In this document: positions 5,592 to 14,948 of the stretch, one piece after another
Layout of the letters: each line of letters starts with the position of its first letter
Numbering within the stretch: the first letter of the stretch is position 1
DNA from: an uncultured Actinomycetota bacterium
GTDB lineage: Bacteria; Actinomycetota; Actinomycetes; JAFAQI01
Reading direction: 5' to 3'
DNA length: 64,000 bases
NCBI GenBank assembly: GCA_963770565.1
Contig: CAVYQE010000001.1
Span: 800,001 to 864,000, forward strand
Position numbers and translations under genes: made by a program
The notes under the pieces: model-generated
Seen by the model: only the letters and a program-made list of their open reading frames with translations
Database searches by the model: none
Told to the model about the DNA's origin: nothing

Positions 5592-6092
5592 ATGCCGTTC
5601 CCGGAGAGCATCCTCGACAACGGTGAGCAGGTGGTGCGCAACCTGCGCCCGCACTGGCGTCGGGTCGTGCTTCCGATCGTGGTGCTACTGGTCGTGATCG
5701 GTCTCGCGTCGTACGGGTGGTTCGCGTTGCCGTCAGGCAGCGCCCGCGGGCCGCTTCGCGACGTGATCCTGGCGGCTGCGCTGGTCATCATCGTGTGGTG
5801 GACGGTGCGTCCGTTGCTGACCTGGGTCACCACCCGGTACGTCATCACCAATCGGCGGGTGCTGATGCGAAACGGGGTCTTCTCGCGCACCGGCCGCGAC
5901 GTGCCGCTCACCCGGGTCAACGACGTGTCGTTCTCGCGCACGGTGGTCGAGCGGCTGATCGGCTCCGGCACGCTAACGATCGAGTCGGCCGGCGACCGAG
6001 GCCAGGTCCTCTTGCACGACGTGCCACACGTCGAGTCAGTCCAGCGCGACATCTACCGTCTCGTAGAAGACGAGGCACAACGACTGCGTTAA
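5592..6092 (+). CDS. Bacterial PH-domain (bPH_2/YdbS-like) membrane protein
   Basis: RPHW, two TM helices, TRYVITNRRV...GVF, GSGTLTIESAG; conserved position after birA. Confidence 0.85.
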   Translation: MPFPESILDNGEQVVRNLRPHWRRVVLPIVVLLVVIGLASYGWFALPSGSARGPLRDVILAAALVIIVWWTVRPLLTWVTTRYVITNRRVLMRNGVFSRTGRDVPLTRVNDVSFSRTVVERLIGSGTLTIESAGDRGQVLLHDVPHVESVQRDIYRLVEDEAQRLR

Positions 6093-6190
6093 CCCAGCGA
6101 GCCGTCAATACAACCACTCAGTTAGCGCACAGCGATCCGCTCATAACCGGCTACAGCACACGTCTGTGGAAGCGGCCGCGCGGGTGAGAG

Positions 6191-6216
6191 CAACCTTTGA
6201 GGGCATAACCGGCGTC
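6191..6216 (+). promoter_or_regulatory. ECF (SigE-type) autoregulatory promoter
   Basis: CAACC-N17-CGTC just upstream of the ECF sigma gene. Confidence 0.55.
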
Positions 6217-6247
6217 ATAGTTGGTAGAGGCGTCGTGGAGGGGTTCT

Positions 6248-6790
6248 ATGCGGGTTGCGAGGAACGCGGCGGTGGAGGACTTCCGTGCCTACGCTGTCGC
6301 CCGTTCAGCGACGCTTCATCGCGCTGCGCTGCTATTGAGCGGTGACCGTGGACATGCGGAAGATCTCGTTCAGACGACGCTGATCAAGGTCTATGTGAAC
6401 TGGCGTCGCGTCGTGAAGGCGGGGAACGCCGATGCGTATGTCAATCGAGTGCTCGTCAACACGCATTTGTCATCACTGCGCAAGCGACGGTTGCGTGAGC
6501 TGCTCAGCGACTCGGTGCCCGAACCGGCACCGGTCGATCCGCGCTATCCGGTCGAAGCGTTGGAAGCGGTGTGGGCTGCCCTGGCCGGACTTCCGCCGCG
6601 CCAGCGGGCAGCGGTCGTGCTTCGTCACTACCAGGGGTTCAGTGAATCCGAGACCGCAGAGATCCTGAACACCTCAGTCGGGAACGTCAAGAGCCTGACC
6701 AGTCGGGGTCTCGCTGGGCTGCGACGCTGCCTCAGCCAGTCCGGTGGGGACGCAGTCGTCGCGGCCGTGCCAACCATGAGAGGGATCTGA
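6248..6790 (+). CDS. SigE-family ECF RNA polymerase sigma factor
   Basis: AEDLVQTTL region 2, LPPRQRAAVVLRHY region 4, GNVKS..SRGL; GGAGG SD before ATG 6248. Confidence 0.9.
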   Translation: MRVARNAAVEDFRAYAVARSATLHRAALLLSGDRGHAEDLVQTTLIKVYVNWRRVVKAGNADAYVNRVLVNTHLSSLRKRRLRELLSDSVPEPAPVDPRYPVEALEAVWAALAGLPPRQRAAVVLRHYQGFSESETAEILNTSVGNVKSLTSRGLAGLRRCLSQSGGDAVVAAVPTMRGI

Positions 6791-7398
6791 TGACCGAGCA
6801 GTTGGACGACGTCCATGAGCTGTTTCAACGGATGACAGTCGGGTACACGCCGGTGCTTGACCTTGACTACGTGACGCGGGCGGCGGAGCACAAGCGGGCC
6901 CGGGTGCTCGCGAAGGCGGGCGGGGCGGTAGCAATCGTGCTCGTCGCATCTGCCGCGTTCGTCGGCGTCAGCGTGACGCACCACCGGGCCGCCCCCGCGC
7001 CCGCGTCGCTCGGAGACCAGTCGTTGGTTACCCCGAGAGCGCTGGCCGGTACTCCGGTCCAAACAACGTCAGTTGTGATTGACCCTCGTTTGTGGACCTA
7101 CGGCCCCCCGTCCGCAAACACGGCTACCCCGGCAACGACCGCGGTGCGGGATTTCGATCAATACACAGGTAGGGACGCGATTCCTGCTGGTACAAGCGTG
7201 ACGATCGGACTTCTGACCGGCAAGACCCTCGATGGCGGGGTAACGCAAGCAACCCTTGTCTATGGCTACTCGGATTACGAACCTAAATGCCCCGATTTTG
7301 GGCCTGGTGGACCAAGCGATGCCAAGGGGTGCACCGGCTGGACATTCCTGGACGCAAACACGGGTAAGCAGATTCTCAGTACTTGGACTCTCAACTGA
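6790..7398 (+). CDS. Putative single-TM anti-sigma factor with extracytoplasmic domain
   Basis: Translationally coupled to the sigma gene (TGATG); one TM helix; two Cys and a FLDANTG motif in the C-terminal part. Confidence 0.65.
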   Translation: MTEQLDDVHELFQRMTVGYTPVLDLDYVTRAAEHKRARVLAKAGGAVAIVLVASAAFVGVSVTHHRAAPAPASLGDQSLVTPRALAGTPVQTTSVVIDPRLWTYGPPSANTATPATTAVRDFDQYTGRDAIPAGTSVTIGLLTGKTLDGGVTQATLVYGYSDYEPKCPDFGPGGPSDAKGCTGWTFLDANTGKQILSTWTLN

Positions 7399-7508
7399 CG
7401 GCGAGCCCCGTTCGCTGACAGTCAGAAGCGCCTCGCAAACCGACCGGAGGTGCTGTTCGGGCGCAACGGTGGACTGATAGTCGGGTCGACTGCGACAGGA
7501 TGGTCGCC

Positions 7509-7871
7509 ATGGCGACAGCTTGGCGCTCGTGCGTGATCATGACGCAGGACGTTGCACGCATGGCCGCTTTCTGGAGGCTGGCCTCAGGCCTCAGGCCAGC
7601 CTTTGAAGGCGACGACGAGGTGGTCTTGACCTCTGACGGGACCCCCGGTCGGCACCCCGGAATTGTCATCATGGCGGGTCAGCCGTCAAGTGACGGTGCC
7701 GTCCACATTGACATCAATTCAGACGACATGCTGGCAGATCTCAGTCGGTTACTGCGCGAGGGAGCAACACTCGTCGCAGATCATGGCGAGGACTGGAAGA
7801 TGCTTCACGACCCGGACGGCAATCCCTTCTGTCTCCGAGGGCCCGCGAAACCTGTGGCGGAGCCGCACTGA
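7509..7871 (+). CDS. VOC/glyoxalase-like family protein
   Basis: AAFWR, VHIDI, GA.., LHDPDGNPFCL motifs; leaderless start after CAGGAT. Confidence 0.8.
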   Translation: MATAWRSCVIMTQDVARMAAFWRLASGLRPAFEGDDEVVLTSDGTPGRHPGIVIMAGQPSSDGAVHIDINSDDMLADLSRLLREGATLVADHGEDWKMLHDPDGNPFCLRGPAKPVAEPH

Positions 7872-7991
7872 GGTTTCGATCCAGGACATGTGGTCGAGGC
7901 GTCGGTCCGTCCCGTAGGCAGGATCCTTGCCGGGCGGTAGTCGTGCGGTCATGCGCCAAACGGCAGGCGAGAACGGTGAGATGATTTCGCT

Positions 7992-8258
7992 GTGACGGCT
8001 AGCGACCTCCCCGGCTTGGACCCCACCTTGCCCGCACCCAGGCGTCCAGTTATTTGGCGCGTTCTCATGTTGTGCTGGGTGGCGGTAGGTGTCGCGGCCG
8101 CGATCGTGGTGGCGCTGGCGGTTCACGGCGTGATCGGCGCAAAGACGGGCGCAGCTATCGTCACCGCGGTGTATCTCGCGTTCGGCGCCATCGCTTTGAG
8201 CCGAGCATGGATGGCCCGCCGCGTCGACATCGAAGTCGACGCACGCGGCCAGCAGTAG
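7992..8258 (+). CDS. Small two-TM membrane protein
   Basis: Two hydrophobic helices; GATGAT -10-like box 6 nt before GTG. Confidence 0.6.
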   Translation: MTASDLPGLDPTLPAPRRPVIWRVLMLCWVAVGVAAAIVVALAVHGVIGAKTGAAIVTAVYLAFGAIALSRAWMARRVDIEVDARGQQ

Positions 8259-8277
8259 CCGAACATACGTGATGCTC

Positions 8278-8562
8278 TCACTCGTCTCCGATGTAGCCCG
8301 TCGCCGGATCGATCATGCCGAGAAAGCCGCGGATGGCGTCGCGGTGCTCCTCCGTAGACGGGTTTGGTGGGCCGCTACTCCCAAAGCCGTAGCCCTCGTT
8401 AGGCCCGCTCAACCATTCGTACGCCCATCCGCCGTCGGCGGCCTGACGAACGGCGAAGTCTTCACCATCGACCTCCAGCGTCAGCAACACGGGGCCGGGG
8501 TGCCCTTCGTCGCCGTCGTACAAGGCGGGGACCGGAGTCCAGTCCCCGTTCCCAGTGCTCAT
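8278..8562 (-). CDS. Small acidic hypothetical protein (94 aa)
   Basis: Globular-looking sequence (YEWLSGPNEGYGF...IDPATGY); TAGCCT 6 nt before ATG. Confidence 0.7.
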   Translation of the reverse strand: MSTGNGDWTPVPALYDGDEGHPGPVLLTLEVDGEDFAVRQAADGGWAYEWLSGPNEGYGFGSSGPPNPSTEEHRDAIRGFLGMIDPATGYIGDE

Positions 8563-8593
8563 AACGCGAGGCTATTGGGATGTCCGGTTGAAA

Positions 8594-8627
8594 GTGCCGA
8601 TATCTGGCCCGTCACGATGGTCGGCAC
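8594..8627. repeat. Imperfect palindrome GTGCCGATATC...GATGGTCGGCAC, copy 1
   Basis: Near-identical arms recur at 11673-11704. Confidence 0.6.
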
Positions 8628-8686
8628 AGTGCCGCATCCCTGCCGCTCGGGCGCACAAGTGCGGCTGATCTGGGATCCTGGCTTGC

Positions 8687-9160
8687 ATGTCGCAGTCAGT
8701 TGTGGCCGAAGTTAAGAGCGTGCTCGCCTTTGGTGAGGGTGTGCCCGGCAGCGCCGCTCTGGACGGCTACGCACCAGCCAACCGCGAACATTTCGGATTC
8801 CGAGCCCAGGTCTTCATTGGACAGCAAGGCGACGATCGCTCGGACAGTTTCGACATCACGGTGTGCTCGCCCTCTTGGTTCGCAGAGGGCGTCTCGCAGC
8901 AGGGCCTGGGGCGGTTCAACCGTCTGTTACGTGCGCTGCCTGAGGGGGTGCTTCCGGGCGCGGGCATCTGGTTCATGCGTCAGTGGGAGCGTTCTGAGTT
9001 CGAGACCGCTCTGAATGCCGTCTGCGACGCTGCGAGCGGGGGGCCAGACTGGGGAAGCGTCGCGTCGCGCATCGGCAGGTTGATCCCATGGGAGTTCGAC
9101 TACAAGTTCGACGCTCATGTCGACAGCCGGTACGGGGAGCCGTTTCCCGTTATCCAATAA
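8687..9160 (+). CDS. Imm8-family polymorphic-toxin immunity protein
   Basis: F.FRAQVFIG...DSFDITVCSPSW and DW...ASRIGRLIPWEF signature. Confidence 0.75.
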   Translation: MSQSVVAEVKSVLAFGEGVPGSAALDGYAPANREHFGFRAQVFIGQQGDDRSDSFDITVCSPSWFAEGVSQQGLGRFNRLLRALPEGVLPGAGIWFMRQWERSEFETALNAVCDAASGGPDWGSVASRIGRLIPWEFDYKFDAHVDSRYGEPFPVIQ

Positions 9161-9189
9161 TGCCGTTCTTCAACGGGCTTACCCGGCGC
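9160..9189 (+). repeat. 30-bp dispersed repeat RTGCCGTTC...CCCGGCGY, copy 1
   Basis: 22/30 identical to 10282-10311 by hand alignment; starts at the Imm8 stop codon. Confidence 0.5.
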
Positions 9190-9232
9190 TATCGTGCGGT
9201 CGTTCGGGTCGCCGTCGAGGGAGAATGTGCTC

Positions 9233-9652
9233 GTGGGAGAGGGTGCACGGGAGCTCTGGCTACGCGACGAGGTCTCACGCCTCGCAGCGTTGATCGAAGC
9301 GCCGCCACGGGAACTTGTGAGTTTCGACTCACGGGTCGACATGGGCGCGCCCTACGTCTGGGTCGAGCCAGGCGGGCCCTACCACTGGATCGTCAAGGAG
9401 CGTGGACAGACGCTTGAGCACCGCACGACACAGGATGTTGACGACATCCTGTTCTGGTCATTCGAGGCGACGACTGGCTCGATGGCCTCGCAATGGGCGG
9501 CTCGGCATCCAGATGAGCAACACGACTTCCGAGTCGGGATGTGGGCCAAGCAACAGGAACTTCTGATGCGGCTCGACCCGCGCTGGGTGAACCGGTGGCG
9601 CGACCGGCTGATCGTGAGGTCCCGGACGCCGAGGCGTTGCCCCCCAGTCTGA
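9233..9652 (+). CDS. Imm63-family immunity protein
   Basis: G.PYV...YHWIVKERGQ...RTT.D.DDILFW.F and DFR...AKQ.ELL..LDP.W; GAGAAT 6 nt before GTG 9233. Confidence 0.72.
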   Translation: MGEGARELWLRDEVSRLAALIEAPPRELVSFDSRVDMGAPYVWVEPGGPYHWIVKERGQTLEHRTTQDVDDILFWSFEATTGSMASQWAARHPDEQHDFRVGMWAKQQELLMRLDPRWVNRWRDRLIVRSRTPRRCPPV

Positions 9653-9730
9653 CTTCCCGGCACGCTGCAGAAGAGGCTTCGTTCTCGCCCGTTTCACCAG
9701 CCCTGGTTTGAGCCGTTGCACCGGGAGTCG

Positions 9731-10141
9731 TCAAGCGGGCGCTTGATCGAACACGCTGAGCCCTCCCCGAGGGCCGAGTTCAAGGGTCGCGCTTCGCACC
9801 TTGTAGGAGTGACCGCAGGAGTCACCGGTTGAGCGTTGGTAGTACCGCACTCGAGCTGCTGAGGCGAGGAGCACGCGTCCGCGCGCGTTAGCGATCTTGA
9901 CCGAGACATCGGTGACATGGTCGAACTTCGCCCCTTGAACACTGACCTGGGATCCTTGAAACGTGGAGCATCGCTGGTCTGCGCAAACCGTGATCGTCTT
10001 CGCGGTCGGGTGTGCGCCGAAGTATTGAGACGCGAGGACGAGGACGCCGGACTGTAATGGCTCCGTCGGTGAGCATTCACCGCTGTAGGCGCAGCTAGAA
10101 AGCGCGCCCACCGCAAGGATCGCCGCGAGTCGAATAATGAT
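9731..10141 (-). CDS. Putative lipoprotein (start codon uncertain)
   Basis: In-frame extension IIIRLAAILAVGALSSC gives a signal peptide with lipobox, but begins at ATC/ATT; first canonical start is GTG 10111. Confidence 0.5.
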   Translation of the reverse strand: MIIRLAAILAVGALSSCAYSGECSPTEPLQSGVLVLASQYFGAHPTAKTITVCADQRCSTFQGSQVSVQGAKFDHVTDVSVKIANARGRVLLASAARVRYYQRSTGDSCGHSYKVRSATLELGPRGGLSVFDQAPA

Positions 10142-10281
10142 TCAGCAACCTACTCACCTGGTTGTGCGCCCCGGTTGACCTTCGGCGATCGTGATCAAAT
10201 CGTTCTGGGTGTGGACCACCTATACGTGTCTTGCGGTCGGCAGCCCCTGTGATCGTCGCGGTGTGGCCGCCCGTGCGCGAA

Positions 10282-10311
10282 GTGCCGTTCCTCGACGCAC
10301 ATTCCCGGCGT
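10282..10311 (+). repeat. 30-bp dispersed repeat RTGCCGTTC...CCCGGCGY, copy 2
   Basis: Matches 9160-9189. Confidence 0.5.
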
Positions 10312-10408
10312 TCCCGACATCCGATAAGGCCACGGGAGCTTCGTGGCGTAGCGGGTCTCGTGAGCCTGATTCGCTGCGGGGCCGGCGGGTGTGATTTAGA
10401 TTCTCGCC

Positions 10409-11602
10409 ATGGGCCAGTTCGGGTTGAGGTCGTTACGTGTAGCGGGCTCGGTCACGGTTATGGCCGTGGTCGCGATGATGGCGGCCCCGATCGCGGCTGG
10501 CGCGGCGGGGAGCGCGCCGCACCTGAGGAAGGTCGCGGTGTTCCGGCTGGGTAAGGACCCGGACGCGATCGGGTTCACGCCCAACAGCAAGTCCGCCTAC
10601 ATCACCAATAGCGGCTCGGGCACGGTTACTGCGGTCCACACCGGCGCGGTGTTGCGCCTCGCGACGGTCAAGACGGGAAGCGACCCGGACGCAATCGTAA
10701 TGAGCCCGAATGGGAAGACCGCGTACGCAGTGAACAGCGGGTCCGCGTCGGTGACGCCGATCTCCACCGCGACCGACAAGGCTCGCCGGCCGATTCGCGT
10801 GGGGAGCGGACCGTGCGCGATCGCGATCTCATCGCGCACGAAACGGGGTTATGTCACGAACTGCGGTTCCGGCACGGTCACACCGTTCAGCTTGGCCACG
10901 AACAAGCCGGGTCCGCCAATTGCGGTGGGGACCGGTCCTGACGCGATCGTGATCACGCCCAACGGCAAGACTGCGTACGTCGCGAACTTCATCGCGGGCA
11001 CGGTCAGCCCGGTCAACTTGCTGACGAACCTGGCAGGTCCACCGATCACGGTCGGCCATCAAGCGGTCACGATGGCGATCACCCCAAACGGTCGGCAGGT
11101 GTATGTCGCGAACTTCGAGTCGAACACGGTCACCCCGATCAACACCACCACGAACAAGGCAGGACCGGCGATCAAGGTCGGCCGCGGACCGGATGCTCTC
11201 GCGGTTGCGGATAATGGCAAGACGGTGCTCGTCGCGAACTACGGTTCGGGTTCGGTCACCGCGATCACGGTCAAGACCAACAAGATCCGCAAGACGATCA
11301 AAGTCGGCAAGAACCCCGAATCAATCGCACTCATGAGCCACACGACGTGGGCGTTGGTCGCCAACGAGGGGTCAGACACTCTCACCGAGTTCAATGCAGT
11401 GACCTTCGGCAAGACCCAGGAGCTGCGAGTCGGCAAGAACCCGAACGTGGCACGCACCACCCCCAACGGCCGCTACCTCTACGTCCTCGCCCAAGGCTCC
11501 CCTCCCTCTGCAGCGCACCTCACCCCCGCCCTCCACGCCCGCCGGCCATGCGACGCGGCCGTCGATACCTGCCCTGGAGAGGGTGAGGCCCTCAACCAGT
11601 AA
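10409..11602 (+). CDS. Secreted YVTN/YncE-type beta-propeller repeat protein
   Basis: Signal peptide; about eight ~42-aa repeats (P.AI..TPNGKTAYV.N..S.TVT.I); leaderless start after TAGATT. Confidence 0.88.
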   Translation: MGQFGLRSLRVAGSVTVMAVVAMMAAPIAAGAAGSAPHLRKVAVFRLGKDPDAIGFTPNSKSAYITNSGSGTVTAVHTGAVLRLATVKTGSDPDAIVMSPNGKTAYAVNSGSASVTPISTATDKARRPIRVGSGPCAIAISSRTKRGYVTNCGSGTVTPFSLATNKPGPPIAVGTGPDAIVITPNGKTAYVANFIAGTVSPVNLLTNLAGPPITVGHQAVTMAITPNGRQVYVANFESNTVTPINTTTNKAGPAIKVGRGPDALAVADNGKTVLVANYGSGSVTAITVKTNKIRKTIKVGKNPESIALMSHTTWALVANEGSDTLTEFNAVTFGKTQELRVGKNPNVARTTPNGRYLYVLAQGSPPSAAHLTPALHARRPCDAAVDTCPGEGEALNQ

Positions 11603-11672
11603 TGGCTCAACACGAGGAGGTGCCGCCGCGGCGACAACCCTCCGCGCACGAGCATGGAACGGCATAGGAGAG

Positions 11673-11704
11673 GTACCGATATCGTCCGCGACGATGGTCG
11701 GCAC
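11673..11704. repeat. Imperfect palindrome GTACCGATATC...GATGGTCGGCAC, copy 2
   Basis: Matches 8594-8627. Confidence 0.6.
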
Positions 11705-11805
11705 TCAGCCGACAGAGGTGCCGTAGCGTCTGGCCACCAGGGGTGCCGTTCGCGGGCCATTCGAGAACGCCGCTCGATGGAAGCCAGGCGAAGTACGGTG
11801 GCAAG

Positions 11806-12057
11806 ATGCGGCTAGCCAGGTGGAGCGCTGCTGTCGTTGTCATCCTGGGCGCTGGGCTTGCGGGCGTGTTCACAGGTGCGTATGAGCAGATCTGTCTTCT
11901 GGACTCAGCGGACTACTGCTATACGACGCACGACTGGGTGTCGACCCAGACTCTGGCCGGAGCGGCGATTGGCATCGTCGCCGGTCTCCTCCTCGTGATC
12001 AGTTGGGTGTGCGGAGAGCGACTCATTCGACGACGACAACGACATCGCGTCGTGTAG
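11806..12057 (+). CDS. Small two-TM membrane protein with Cys-containing loop
   Basis: Two TM helices, basic C-terminal tail; TACGGT 6 nt before ATG. Confidence 0.6.
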   Translation: MRLARWSAAVVVILGAGLAGVFTGAYEQICLLDSADYCYTTHDWVSTQTLAGAAIGIVAGLLLVISWVCGERLIRRRQRHRVV

Positions 12058-12084
12058 TGCCGTTAGCCGGCTGGGTGGAGGTCG

Positions 12085-13431
12085 TCAGCCGAGCACTCGC
12101 CGTGCCAGGTCGAGATGGAAGCGTACGGAGAGCAACAGGTCGTCAACGTGCACCCGTTCGTTGGCGTTGTGGGCGCCGGCCTCGATCACCTCGGTCGGTG
12201 TGGCCCGGAACGGGCTGAAGCCGTATGCCGCAGTGCCGGCCGCGGCGCGCAGGTAGTTGCTGTCCGTGAACCCGGTGCACAGCCGCGGGATGATGGTGGC
12301 CGAGTCATCGTCCGCCGCGAGGAAGGCGGCGATGGCTGCTGGCACGGGGCCGTCGAGTGGTGAGCTCGACGCCGGGGTGATCGGCTCGGGCCACCCGAGC
12401 TCGTAGGCGATGTCGTCGCCGAGCAGCGACCTGACATGCGCCTCGACGTTGTCCTGCGTCGTACCGGGAAGGATCCGGCAATCCACCTCGGCGGTGGCCC
12501 GCGCCGGCATGACGTTGCGTTGCTCGGATCCCCACAGCATGGTCGGCGCGAGCGTCGATCCCATCAGGGCCGGCAGGATGTGCACCAGGGTCGGATGGAG
12601 GGCGCCCGCCTCAGCCACCGCTCGGCCAAGGTCCGGCTCGTCGCGGCCGAGAACGGCACGCAGCAACGCTGTAAACACCGGCGTGGGAGCCGGATCGGGG
12701 AGACCATTGCCCAGTCTCACCAGCAGTCGAGCCAGCATCGGCACGGCGTTGTTGCCGAGCGTCGGCTGCGACGCGTGGCCCGCCTCGCCCGACGCCGTGA
12801 TCTGGAATGGCAGCGTGCCCTTCTCGCCGACGGCGTACATCACGACCTCGCGTCCATCGGCCAGGGGCAACCGTTCACCGCCGCCTTCATTGACACTGTG
12901 GGTCGGCCGGATGTCGGCCCGCTCCTTTAGCAGCCAGCGCATCCCGACGTCCGCGAAACCGTCCTCCTCGTCCGCCACTGCGATGAACCACAGGTCGCCG
13001 GTCGGTCGGAATCCGTTGCGCGCCAGTTCCGCCATCGCCACAGCCCGGGCCGCGACCTCGTTCTTCATGTCTACGGCGCCGCGACCCCACAGCCAGCCGG
13101 CATCGTCGACGATGGCCTCGAACGGCGGGTGAGTCCAGTCGCGCGGGTCGCACGGCACGACGTCCGTGTGGCCGACGAACGCCAGCGATTCCGCATCGGG
13201 GGACGCGCCCCGGATGCGTGCCACGAGATTGGCCCGGTCCGGGTCGCGGGCGACCAGTTCAACTTCGACACCGTTGCGGGCAAGGTAGTCCTGCAGGTAC
13301 GCCGCACACCGGGTTTCGTTGCCCAGCCCGGGCTCGCGGGCGTTGGTCGTGTCGAGCCGCATCAGGTCGCGGGCAACCTCGATCACCTCGTCATGAAGGC
13401 GCGAGAGGTCGAGCCCTGCCGGTCCCGTCAT
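12085..13431 (-). CDS. M20/M25/M40 family metallopeptidase
   Basis: GHTDVV, GRGAVDMK, ADEE, EKG, GFTD and AHNANE motifs. Confidence 0.92.
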   Translation of the reverse strand: MTGPAGLDLSRLHDEVIEVARDLMRLDTTNAREPGLGNETRCAAYLQDYLARNGVEVELVARDPDRANLVARIRGASPDAESLAFVGHTDVVPCDPRDWTHPPFEAIVDDAGWLWGRGAVDMKNEVAARAVAMAELARNGFRPTGDLWFIAVADEEDGFADVGMRWLLKERADIRPTHSVNEGGGERLPLADGREVVMYAVGEKGTLPFQITASGEAGHASQPTLGNNAVPMLARLLVRLGNGLPDPAPTPVFTALLRAVLGRDEPDLGRAVAEAGALHPTLVHILPALMGSTLAPTMLWGSEQRNVMPARATAEVDCRILPGTTQDNVEAHVRSLLGDDIAYELGWPEPITPASSSPLDGPVPAAIAAFLAADDDSATIIPRLCTGFTDSNYLRAAAGTAAYGFSPFRATPTEVIEAGAHNANERVHVDDLLLSVRFHLDLARRVLG

Positions 13432-13493
13432 ACGTCACTCCCAAGCCGGTTGAGCATCCAGGCACTGATGGGCAAGGCCCAACAGGACGAAAC

Positions 13494-14948
13494 CTAGGCG
13501 AATCGCGAGTTCGTTGGTGGCGGGGGGCAGGAATCGCGGCGGCCAGGCCGTTGATAGGCCGCCGGGCTCGTCGAATCGTCGGGGTCGTCGGGATCGTCGC
13601 CGGCCAGCCGATACGGGGCGACGATGCGGCTGCTTCCGGCGGGGGTGGTCCATTCCAGGTAGCCGTTGGGCAGGGTTCGGACGGTCCAGCCGGCGTGAGT
13701 CTTGCAGCGGTGGTGGCGTCGACATCGCGGACACACGTTCGTCTCGTCGGACGGTCCGCCGACATCGTGCGGCACGGTGTGCTCACCGTCACAACGCGAT
13801 GACGGAATCGAGCAGCCGGGGTAGTCGCAGTTGGGGCGAACCCCGAGCATGAAGTCGCGGAGCACCTTGTTGGGCCGGTAGCTTGCTCGCCCGATGGCGA
13901 TGAGGGCACCGGTGTCTTCGGCGGTGCAGAACCGCTGCCATTCGCCCTCGGCGGCCAGCTCCCGAAGGTGTTCGGCGGTGATCGGGCCGTAACCAGCCAG
14001 CTCGCCCGGATCGTTTCGCAAGCCCAGCAGCGTCTTGATCCCGCCGGTGACCTGCACCGTCACCCGCGCACGGGCGGAGGACGGAAGGTCGCGGTCGGTG
14101 ACCGCACCGGCGCACAGGTCGGCGAGGGCGTCCGCGCGGCGCTGATCCACGGTCCGGATCTGGTCGAGCCTCCCGCTCTTGACCTGCTGCCGGTCGCTGG
14201 CACCGTACTGGTCCGCGATCTCGGTGAGGCTGTTCATGACAACCTTTGCGTCCTCAGCGCGCAGCTCGGCGTACACCGCGGCCATCCCGTCCGGTAGTGG
14301 CCAGGACTCGATCCGGCGCCCACGGATCGCGCGTTGCCGCTTCGCTTCCGCAGCCGCGGTGTCGGCCTTGATCACTTCTCGGCGCAGCTTGCGCCGCCAG
14401 GCAGTCACATCCCGGTTGATCTCCCAGCTGTCGACCATCGCCTGGTCGACCTGCTCGACCTGCCACGGCTCGAGCCCCGCGGTTGCATCCACGACCGCGC
14501 GCGCCATCAGCCAGCTGATCCCGCCCCGCTCCAGCGCCGACCGCACCCCAGGCAGGTTGGAGAGCACGGTCCGCGCGGTGTGCAGGTCGGTCCCGGCGCT
14601 GTTCAAGGTCTGGCCCGTGATCAAGGCGATGATCTCGGGACCGAAGTCATCGGTGCCGAACGGACCAGCGACGGCGTGCTGCGGGCTCGCCGCGCCGGCG
14701 ACCGCTTCCGCACGCCGGAGCTGGGTCCACGCGAGGAGGCGGTCCCATACGCCGAGCACCCGCTCCCGATCCGCGTCCGACAGGATCTCTTCGCGCAGGT
14801 GGTCCAGCACGGACAGCATCCGTACGCCGGGCCGCTCGACCTCCAGCTTGTCGAGGAGCCTCGCCGGGCAGTTGGCCAGCAGCTCGTCGACCGCTGCGGC
14901 GCAGTCGTCGCGGAACTCGAACACGTGTTCGATCCTAAGCGCTCCCAC
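13494..14948 (-). CDS. DUF222 / HNH endonuclease (13E12-repeat-like) protein
   Basis: R..DQRRADAL, GELAGYGPI, YRP, C.YPGC, C(D)GEH..P, CRRHHRCKT motifs. Confidence 0.88.
   Translation of the reverse strand: MGALRIEHVFEFRDDCAAAVDELLANCPARLLDKLEVERPGVRMLSVLDHLREEILSDADRERVLGVWDRLLAWTQLRRAEAVAGAASPQHAVAGPFGTDDFGPEIIALITGQTLNSAGTDLHTARTVLSNLPGVRSALERGGISWLMARAVVDATAGLEPWQVEQVDQAMVDSWEINRDVTAWRRKLRREVIKADTAAAEAKRQRAIRGRRIESWPLPDGMAAVYAELRAEDAKVVMNSLTEIADQYGASDRQQVKSGRLDQIRTVDQRRADALADLCAGAVTDRDLPSSARARVTVQVTGGIKTLLGLRNDPGELAGYGPITAEHLRELAAEGEWQRFCTAEDTGALIAIGRASYRPNKVLRDFMLGVRPNCDYPGCSIPSSRCDGEHTVPHDVGGPSDETNVCPRCRRHHRCKTHAGWTVRTLPNGYLEWTTPAGSSRIVAPYRLAGDDPDDPDDSTSPAAYQRPGRRDSCPPPPTNSRFA

Follow-up and report, generated by a model that had tools for sequence, protein, structure and literature searches.

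Insertion sequences (IS) of the IS1111/IS110 group pick specific targets via a seekRNA derived from a noncoding region (NCR), and the IS1111-type layout set out by Siddiquee et al. consists of a downstream NCR and subterminal inverted repeats (PMC11187229). According to a preprint, ISPpu10 targets copies of the repetitive extragenic palindromic (REP) element with a 5' stem-loop and builds IS-cargo-IS units (bioRxiv 10.64898/2026.03.19.712850). Here we describe an island of ten unrelated genes with recurring short motifs in its spacers, located in a 64,000-nt stretch of the genome of an uncultured soil actinobacterium (contig C1:800001-864000, called the window below). An earlier note had taken these motifs for the sites of a gene-cassette system. 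They are in part real repeats, and are best read as landing sites of IS110/IS1111 elements rather than new integron-like cassette sites. The island is a locus of hypervariable accessory-gene content. The repeats exist, IS insert at one fixed point of the motif, and it is at the motif that synteny with the closest relative is lost. Our interpretation, held with moderate confidence, is that the island motifs serve RNA-guided DEDD transposases as REP-like targets of low copy number, and that these enzymes also give rise to rearrangements there.

Other described systems provide a comparison. Integron attC sites are imperfect palindromes of 57-141 nt with the consensus GTTRRRY, and the IS1111-attC group comprises IS1111-family elements that insert into them. 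The pdif modules of Acinetobacter plasmids are integrase-less gene modules that depend on Xer. The source genome of the window (G000) has 4.43 Mb in 11 contigs and is about 95% complete (94.9%); it was compared with four genomes of the same genus (G001 to G004). The island is delimited as follows.

6093..12084, no strand: accessory island of lower GC, hypervariable, between the bPH_2 gene and the M20 peptidase gene

Two repeat families are present in the island spacers. Family A is a hairpin of 32-34 nt with a tail, and family B is a motif of about 35 nt with the head TGCCGTTC. The island contains these copies.

8594..8627, plus strand: A1, family A hairpin GTGCCGATATC...GATGGTCGGCAC (nhmmer E 9e-16)
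8628..8656, plus strand: tail of A1, including the motif at 8640-8656 described in the earlier note; 8635-8649 is CATCCCTGCCGCTCG
11673..11704, plus strand: A2, second family A hairpin (nhmmer E 7e-15)
11705..11730, plus strand: tail of A2, linker GCCGACAGAG followed by the target-like GTGCCGTAGCG (alignment of 8 A copies)
9158..9192, plus strand: B1, starting on the Imm8 stop codon, TAATGCCGTTCTTCAACGG...CCCGGCGC (nhmmer E 3e-6)
10275..10313, plus strand: B2, in the divergent spacer 5' of the propeller gene (nhmmer E 1e-6)

In the nhmmer search of the G000 genome, family A had 3 copies (E 3e-16 to 7e-15) and the next match was at E 0.49; the third copy, at C6:179662-179708, is 90% identical to A2 over 48 nt. 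Family B also had 3 copies in G000 (E 8e-7 to 3e-6), the third of which, at C6:177445-177477, is 88% identical to B2 over 33 nt. The next-best B match (E 0.18) was the right junction of an insertion sequence, and another B copy is present in G004. In the genus, family A amounts to 8 copies, with three in G000, four in G003 (three in direct orientation on C156 and one on C33) and one in G002. The strings quoted in the earlier note were all present in the sequence at their positions, and its two best pairs proved to be true repeats: 8594-8627/11673-11704 belongs to family A (nhmmer E <= 7e-15) and 9160-9189/10282-10311 to family B (nhmmer E <= 3e-6). Pairs of the 22/30 type numbered 8 among the island spacers versus 0.1 in shuffled spacers.

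In the best-kept A copies, the hairpin is followed by the linker GCCGCAGAG and then by a B-type head, GTGCCGTTC...CCGGCG. Because the tail of the hairpin continues as a B element, A and B form one AB element of about 80 nt; solitary B heads occur too, without the hairpin. The core common to A tails and B is RRGTG^CCGYT. The consensus stem of family A has 13-14 bp (14 pairs over 8 copies), and this target-side stem-loop lies about 13 nt 5' of the core in the 8 AB copies. All B-like copies of G000 are in the island, on contig C6 or at C2:887-893k, and the C6 and C2 regions are IS-rich.

The core is the insertion point of three different IS110-family elements. All nine IS copies examined, representing three IS110-family elements in three genomes, abut RRGTG^CCGYT, and three of them have empty paralogous sites; this tally leaves out three IS110-family genes (one at G000 C1:973803 and two in G002 L022). 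The first element, IS-1, is 1527 bp long, encodes a 348-aa product with the Pfam domains DEDD_Tnp_IS110 and Transposase_20, and is present in 3 copies that are 99.8% identical. An NCR of about 390 nt follows the gene, and the inverted repeats, 13/14, are subterminal (ends read by eye). At the left junction of each of the three copies, RRGTG is followed by ATGCCATAACGG (ATGCC...), and at the right junction of each, CAGGGATG (...GGGATG) is followed by CCGTTCT(T)CGA. The site at C2:464797 is occupied and its counterpart at C6:173830 (minus strand) is empty (...GATAGGTGCCGTTCTCG...); likewise, C6:1763 is occupied and C2:888546 is empty (...ATACGTGCCGTTCTTCGAC...). The comparison of occupied and empty sites indicates that IS-1 inserts at G-TG-CC, with TG at both junctions. 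One IS-1 copy is located directly after a hairpin A copy on C6.

IS-2, another member of the IS110 family, is present in 3 copies, each with the left flank RAGTGCCGT(T), and its site pair consists of C2:891450 (occupied) and C6:6157 (empty). IS-3, the third IS110-family element, has one copy on a G003-like 15.8-kb metagenome contig and two in G004. At all three, AGAGGTG meets ATGCTCC on one side and CATCCC-TG-CCGCTCGCG is found on the other; the copy on the metagenome contig directly follows the ...CAGAGGTG of an AB copy. The string ATGCCGTTCTTC has four genomic occurrences, namely, two IS-1 right junctions, position 9160 of the window (B1) and C10:70510. The proposal of the earlier note that the motifs are cut and joined by a recombinase encoded elsewhere is borne out by these nine copies, but the recombinase is not an undescribed one, as three IS110/IS1111-family elements insert exactly at RRGTG^CCGYT.

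The regions C2:886800-893800 and C6:1-6874 form a duplication of about 6 kb with 96-97% identity, the C2 copy being interrupted by IS-2 and the C6 copy by IS-1. Since each copy carries a different IS, the duplication provides natural pairs of empty and occupied sites. A 52-nt B-like direct repeat is present at C2:887574 and C2:888545. Elsewhere on C6, the region 168000-187000 (L001) contains a TrwC relaxase, an integrase fragment, SIR2-like and Imm1 proteins, IS630-type elements and two IS110-type elements, as well as an extracytoplasmic function (ECF) sigma factor with a 461-aa propeller-type partner. The region probably belongs to a conjugative element or a plasmid.

A possible trace of an IS remains in the island. 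All 15 nt of the stretch 8635-8649 match the right junction of IS-3 (L176:3826-3840), and A1 departs from the family A consensus (CAGAGG to CATCCC) exactly at this match. Judged from the sequence, it is possible that 8635-8649 is an IS footprint left by a deletion between the target CA and a CA near the IS end. Decayed ends of a known IS family were the outcome that the earlier note had said would speak against its cassette system, and this stretch comes close to such an outcome.

Under the interpretation of the motifs as transposase targets, IS110/IS1111-type elements of the genus would insert at AB and B elements as preferred targets, and the inserted IS would then cause deletions and translocations at the motifs, shaping the island. 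Insertion with later rearrangement would leave motifs and IS-end footprints at gene junctions and island edges; the small candidate footprints in view are CATCCC at 8635-8640 and ATG before CCGTTCTTC. By analogy with the studied members of the family, which locate their targets by means of an IS-encoded bridge or seek RNA, such a guide RNA presumably finds the target, and the hairpin of A may serve as a structural mark for target choice, as for ISPpu10.

Like the REP targets of ISPpu10 and IS621 (bioRxiv 10.64898/2026.03.19.712850), the target is a conserved repeat in intergenic DNA whose GC-rich hairpin lies 5' of the point of insertion. With the REP-targeting IS110 elements, the elements described here share a fixed insertion position, a 2-nt core at both junctions and the presence of IS at rearrangement boundaries. 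The differences are that there are 3-8 copies per genome instead of hundreds, that the repeats occur only in accessory or mobile regions, and that three IS elements share the site. Unlike in ISPpu10, the hairpin has 13-14 bp rather than about 5 bp, and instead of overlapping the left target it stops about 13 nt short of the core; the core is TG, not CT. The similarity to the IS1111-attC group lies in the IS1111-type layout of IS-1 and in a target that is a short repeat between unrelated accessory genes, but the repeat is no attC, and there is no integron integrase or attI.

Chance likeness of short GC-rich words in low-complexity spacers was considered as an explanation of the motifs. The heptamer TGCCGTT occurred 5 times in the intergenic DNA of the island (1271 nt) versus 0.26 expected from the intergenic DNA of the rest of the genome (P 8.4e-6) and ranked 1st of 8178 canonical 7-mers; the Bonferroni-corrected value was only about 0.07. 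Genome-wide, no intergenic enrichment of TGCCGTT was detected (0.214 per kb versus 0.241 per kb overall). The enrichment over background, whose absence the earlier note had named as a refuting outcome, was thus found in the island spacers but neither withstood correction clearly nor extended to the genome. The intergenic background came from a crude gene caller based on codon usage (4243 genes, 85% coding), which missed the lipoprotein-like ORF; this ORF was added by hand. GC-phase periodicity, tried as a coding mask, failed to separate island genes from spacers, and further TGCCGTT clusters at C11:576925, C5:24588 and C1:255703 were set aside as a tandem repeat or probably uncalled genes.

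Chance also accounts for the weaker pairs. Among the spacers, there were 50 pairs of the 13/17 type versus 20.1 +/- 6.7 after shuffling and 47 of the 12/15 type versus 19.9 +/- 7.8. Because such pairs arise about 20 times in shuffled spacers, the pair 7450-7466/8640-8656 (13/17) and the island-edge pair (12/15), both listed in the earlier note, have no weight alone; the 17-mer at 7450 by itself was at chance level. Families A and B, however, were detected at E 1e-6 to 1e-16 and recur in other genomes of the genus, and the 9 IS insertions mark the motif independently. For these two families, chance is refuted; it stands only for the 7450/8640 pair alone and the edge motif at 6144-6158, and as the explanation of the motifs at large it is extremely improbable.

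Comparison with the relatives showed that the content 3' of the PH gene is different in all 5 genomes of the genus. Between G000 and G003, which are 93-97% identical, the homology on the left ends at about 6149, where G003 continues with ATGCCGTTCTTC, and on the right it restarts exactly at TGCCGT (12058). As the earlier note had anticipated, the gene content is swapped between close relatives, and the G000/G003 breaks are at the motif on both sides of the island. The left-edge motif of G000 is out of register with the break, which counts against a clean cassette model. The island of G003 itself is 2.6 kb long and has 4 motif copies at gene junctions.

These data also bear on the alternative that IS110/IS1111-type recombinases act in trans to move motif-bounded single-gene units. 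The route would be through IS-cargo-IS units or mini-IS-like ends, with the IS lost later, and AB/B would be the functional equivalent of attC. One unit that bears on this is the following.

12050..13506, minus strand: M20 unit, at three unrelated loci in G000, G001 and G003

The M20 gene is 88-96% identical in the three genomes, with sharp homology boundaries (L016:5519-6975; L017:5472-6788), one of which is exactly at TGCCGT. In G001, the unit is located between homologues of C1:1479790 and C1:1479839, and in G003, between homologues of C2:153035 and C2:142700. The vicinal oxygen chelate (VOC) unit (7455-7873) is found elsewhere in G003 with homology from the motif onward, but its boundaries are blurred by 85% divergence, and the propeller gene is found elsewhere in G004. 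G003 has a 930-nt insertion in which an AB element and a lipoprotein gene are bracketed by two hairpin repeats of about 70 nt; it is absent at G000 C11:136051/136076. On C156 of G003, three AB copies lie in direct orientation, 5.4 and 1.6 kb apart, and the same arrangement is reproduced on the 15.8-kb metagenome contig. For other family members, the literature reports that IS1111 ends move cargo in trans (PMC11187229) and documents IS-cargo-IS units (bioRxiv 10.64898/2026.03.19.712850).

However, no unit with the motif at both breakpoints was found, and only a handful of units are available from the 5 genomes. The unit ends match the donor ends of IS-1, IS-2 and IS-3 over 3-6 nt at most. Movement of single-gene units in trans is therefore unlikely. 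Also doubtful, and slightly more so, is the claim that the hairpin and RRGTG^CCGYT together are the junction of an RNA-guided cassette system in which IS1111-type DEDD recombinases and their seekRNAs, encoded at other places in the genome, excise single accessory genes bounded by these sites and insert them again. If this were true, arrays such as that at 6093-12084 of the window and that on G003 C156 would grow gene by gene and would represent an integrase-less integron analogue in Mycobacteriales.

Several observations weigh against the interpretation of the motifs as low-copy REP-like targets of RNA-guided transposases. No IS110-family element is present in the island today, and neither of the two 5' breakpoints of the M20 unit that were compared has the motif. 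The NCR of IS-1 contains a 9-nt complement of the right target CGAAGAACG, which was equaled in 55/1000 shuffles, and the NCR of IS-2 showed nothing above chance against its target (644/1000 shuffles equal). Copy numbers in G000 (3 for A, about 8 for B) are far under those of classic REP targets. Family A is confined to this genus: among 20 loci that matched its pattern in a scan of one genome per prokaryote species, the only true A copies were 3 from the genus. The metagenome scan gave 12 matches at E < 1e-4 in 8 of 121 loci, corresponding to 5 distinct sequences. In the hairpin, a double change was observed in only 1 of 17 predicted pairs, and the DNA-fold z-scores were modest (-2.6 to +0.7). 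The corrected enrichment of TGCCGTT given above belongs here as well, and the relatives are draft assemblies of the metagenome-assembled type with 20-550 contigs.

Some details of these searches are as follows. The remaining 17 of the 20 loci are without the left arm or tail and resemble coding DNA. Among the 5 metagenome sequences, 3 correspond to the copies of G003 C156, within a longer contig; of the other two, one is a variant of that array and one a doubtful diverged copy. A 13-nt 'up' target match of IS-2 was discarded as an artefact, as the element boundary had included flank. A degenerate B pattern gave >120 matches over genomes of all kinds of phyla and was uninformative.

The earlier note proposed that an undescribed cassette-capture system, with no integrase and no relation to known IS, uses the motifs as ~17-bp sites. 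In favour of this are the local enrichment of the motif, the integron-like cargo (Imm8, Imm63, VOC and small membrane proteins), the synteny breaks at the motif and the two copies that begin on stop codons, with TAA+TGCCGTT at 9158 and TAG+TGCCGTT at 12055 as claimed. The insertion of a known recombinase family at the exact motif in nine of nine IS copies nevertheless already explains the cutting. The tyrosine recombinase family (PF00589) has 15 matches in the genome, none in the window and the nearest at C1:961954, and the Y1 HUH transposase (PF01797) has 0 matches in the 94.9%-complete genome. No recombinase family was matched among the island open reading frames (ORFs) with Pfam or NCBIfam. 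Of the motifs described as palindromes, family A folds, but four of the five others tested fold no better than shuffles (z -0.70 for B1, +0.61 for B2, -1.17 for 12050, -0.01 for 7440 and -0.36 for 6130). An undescribed capture system is consequently very unlikely.

The same data separate the island from the integron itself. As in integron arrays, small unrelated accessory genes are separated by a recurring junction motif, with two copies abutting stop codons; unlike in integron arrays, no IntI is present (PF00589 has no match in C1:800001-864000) and the genes are not co-oriented (8 on the plus strand, 2 on the minus strand). The motif lacks the R''/L''-L'/R' architecture of attC, only family A folds, and neither head, GTTCYTC or GTTAGCC, conforms to GTTRRRY (by eye). 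Since the window encodes no integrase and the genome no Y1 transposase, gene orientation is mixed and the M20 5' breaks lack the motif, an integron-like system is not upheld. REP sequences or bacterial interspersed mosaic elements with a REP-associated tyrosine transposase differ in the presence of that transposase, as PF01797 has no match in the genome, and in their tens to hundreds of copies versus 3 for A and about 8 for B. The pdif modules are similar as an idea, in that genes bounded by short sites are moved by a recombinase encoded elsewhere, but the motif is without the 11-6-11 XerC/XerD dyad (by eye), and the actor here is the DEDD transposase family. A polymorphic-toxin immunity island, in which immunity genes neighbour toxin genes or toxin C-terminal fragments behind a repeated coding stretch, would agree with Imm8 and Imm63. 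The hairpin copies are noncoding, because 2-nt indels separate them.

The remaining motif copies of the island bear on a further explanation, in which the motif is a promoter, operator or 5' leader shared by one mobile-element pool, for example, an ECF sigma regulon, and IS hits are secondary.

7447..7480, plus strand: motif variant GAGGTGCTGTTCGGGCGCAACGG, 50 nt 5' of the Glyoxalase_6 gene; homology with the G003 gene begins here
11743..11773, plus strand: GTGCCGTTCGCGG copy 5' of the small transmembrane (TM) gene; single copy, no extended similarity
12056..12072, plus strand: GTGCCGTTAGCCGGCT on the stop codon of the small TM gene; G000/G003 homology (96%) restarts at TGCCGT
7927..7966, minus strand: CTGCCGTTTGG copy, included in the enrichment count; no extended similarity
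11620..11665, minus strand: ATGCCGTTCC copy just left of A2
6144..6158, minus strand: left-edge motif GTGCTGTAGCCGGTT, a chance-level match; the G000/G003 break is inside it, at about 6149

Several copies are located 30-180 nt upstream of genes in the same orientation (Imm8, Imm63, propeller, small TM and VOC), as is also the case at the G003 lipoprotein gene and C2:888630. In the case of VOC, motif and gene travel together; GTGCCG recurs within AB at 11- and 33-nt spacing (counted by eye), and both loci, the island and the C6 region, include an ECF sigma gene. On the other hand, the orientation to the next gene is mixed, roughly 8 with versus 6 against in a hand tally, and the copies at 12057, 7966 (minus strand) and 11665 (minus strand) face gene 3' ends. 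There is no consistent -35/-10, with TANNNT in 3 of 7 B copies (by eye), and neither the island nor the C6 region matched any Rfam family at E <= 1. A shared regulatory element is accordingly quite improbable as the primary role of the motif.

The gene content of the island agrees with the description in the earlier note of about ten mixed-orientation genes between a PH-domain gene and an M20 peptidase, which was confirmed by ORF and family calls. On the 5' side are genes for a carboxyltransferase, a biotin ligase and then the bacterial PH-domain protein (bPH_2, 5592-6092). The GC content of the island is 63.7%, versus 69.5% for the window. The ten unrelated ORFs, 8 on the plus and 2 on the minus strand, and the gene that follows are listed here.

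ORF 1, 6221-6790, plus strand: SigE-family ECF sigma factor (family search)
ORF 2, plus strand: 202-aa protein, family unknown
ORF 3, plus strand: Glyoxalase_6 (VOC)
ORF 4, plus strand: 88-aa small TM protein
ORF 5, minus strand: 94-aa protein, family unknown
ORFs 6 and 7, plus strand: Imm8, then Imm63
ORF 8, minus strand: lipoprotein-like
ORF 9, plus strand: YNCE-type beta-propeller
ORF 10, plus strand: small TM protein, probable start ATG 11806
12085-13431, minus strand: M20 peptidase, converging on the island

Despite the presence of Imm8 and Imm63, no toxin domain was detected in the island ORFs by Pfam or NCBIfam, and no remote toxin search was made. In the spacer 5' of the sigma gene (window 6140-6215), CATAACCGG occurs twice. 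The 7-mer CATAACC was found 3 times in the island spacers versus 0.05 expected (P 2e-5, uncorrected). In the 484-aa gene beside M20, the last ~22 codons are wholly different between G000 and G003, and the remainder is 98% identical (13494-13555 versus L012:3373-3508). As only these C-terminal codons differ, a recombination break lies inside the coding region. After the PH gene of G001 (L014:699-955), there are copies of a dispersed repeat of about 100 nt that is multi-copy in G000 (C1:712840-713296 and others).

The hairpin repeat of about 70 nt, TGATCTTCG...CGAAGATCA, occurs about 15 times in G000 (from 17 blastn rows, of which some overlap or are opposite-strand hits at one site), for example, at C1:1297241-1297313, C11:164217-164290 and C2:226622-226702; further examples are L021:157-236 and 962-1065. 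Several copies have GTGCCGYT 15 nt further on. Hairpin families of this kind show that the organism commonly carries REP-like repeats. In G004, a tandem 20-nt repeat, CTCCAACGCCGCGCCTTTAT, adjoins a B element in 4 copies (L023, ~6870-6950), and an IS256-type (Transposase_mut) element is inserted 20 nt from a B element. The possibility that B is the inverted repeat of this IS256-type element was rejected, since the IS has its own GGGACTGT... repeats and B is in its flank. A conserved coding N terminus (EVPF...), considered for B and the A tail in view of GAG/GAA and GTG/ATG changes, was also rejected; the frames are not kept, and the ORFs are short and arginine-rich.

Natural targets of bridge- or seek-RNA recombinases are known mainly from proteobacterial REP elements; here, the genus is an uncultured actinobacterial one from soil. 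One short target with a long 5' hairpin serves three different IS110-family elements and is found at accessory-gene junctions and synteny breaks. The island illustrates that IS target repeats can mimic an integron-like appearance. It offers a compact natural case for asking whether target-side structure guides these recombinases and whether single genes are reshuffled.

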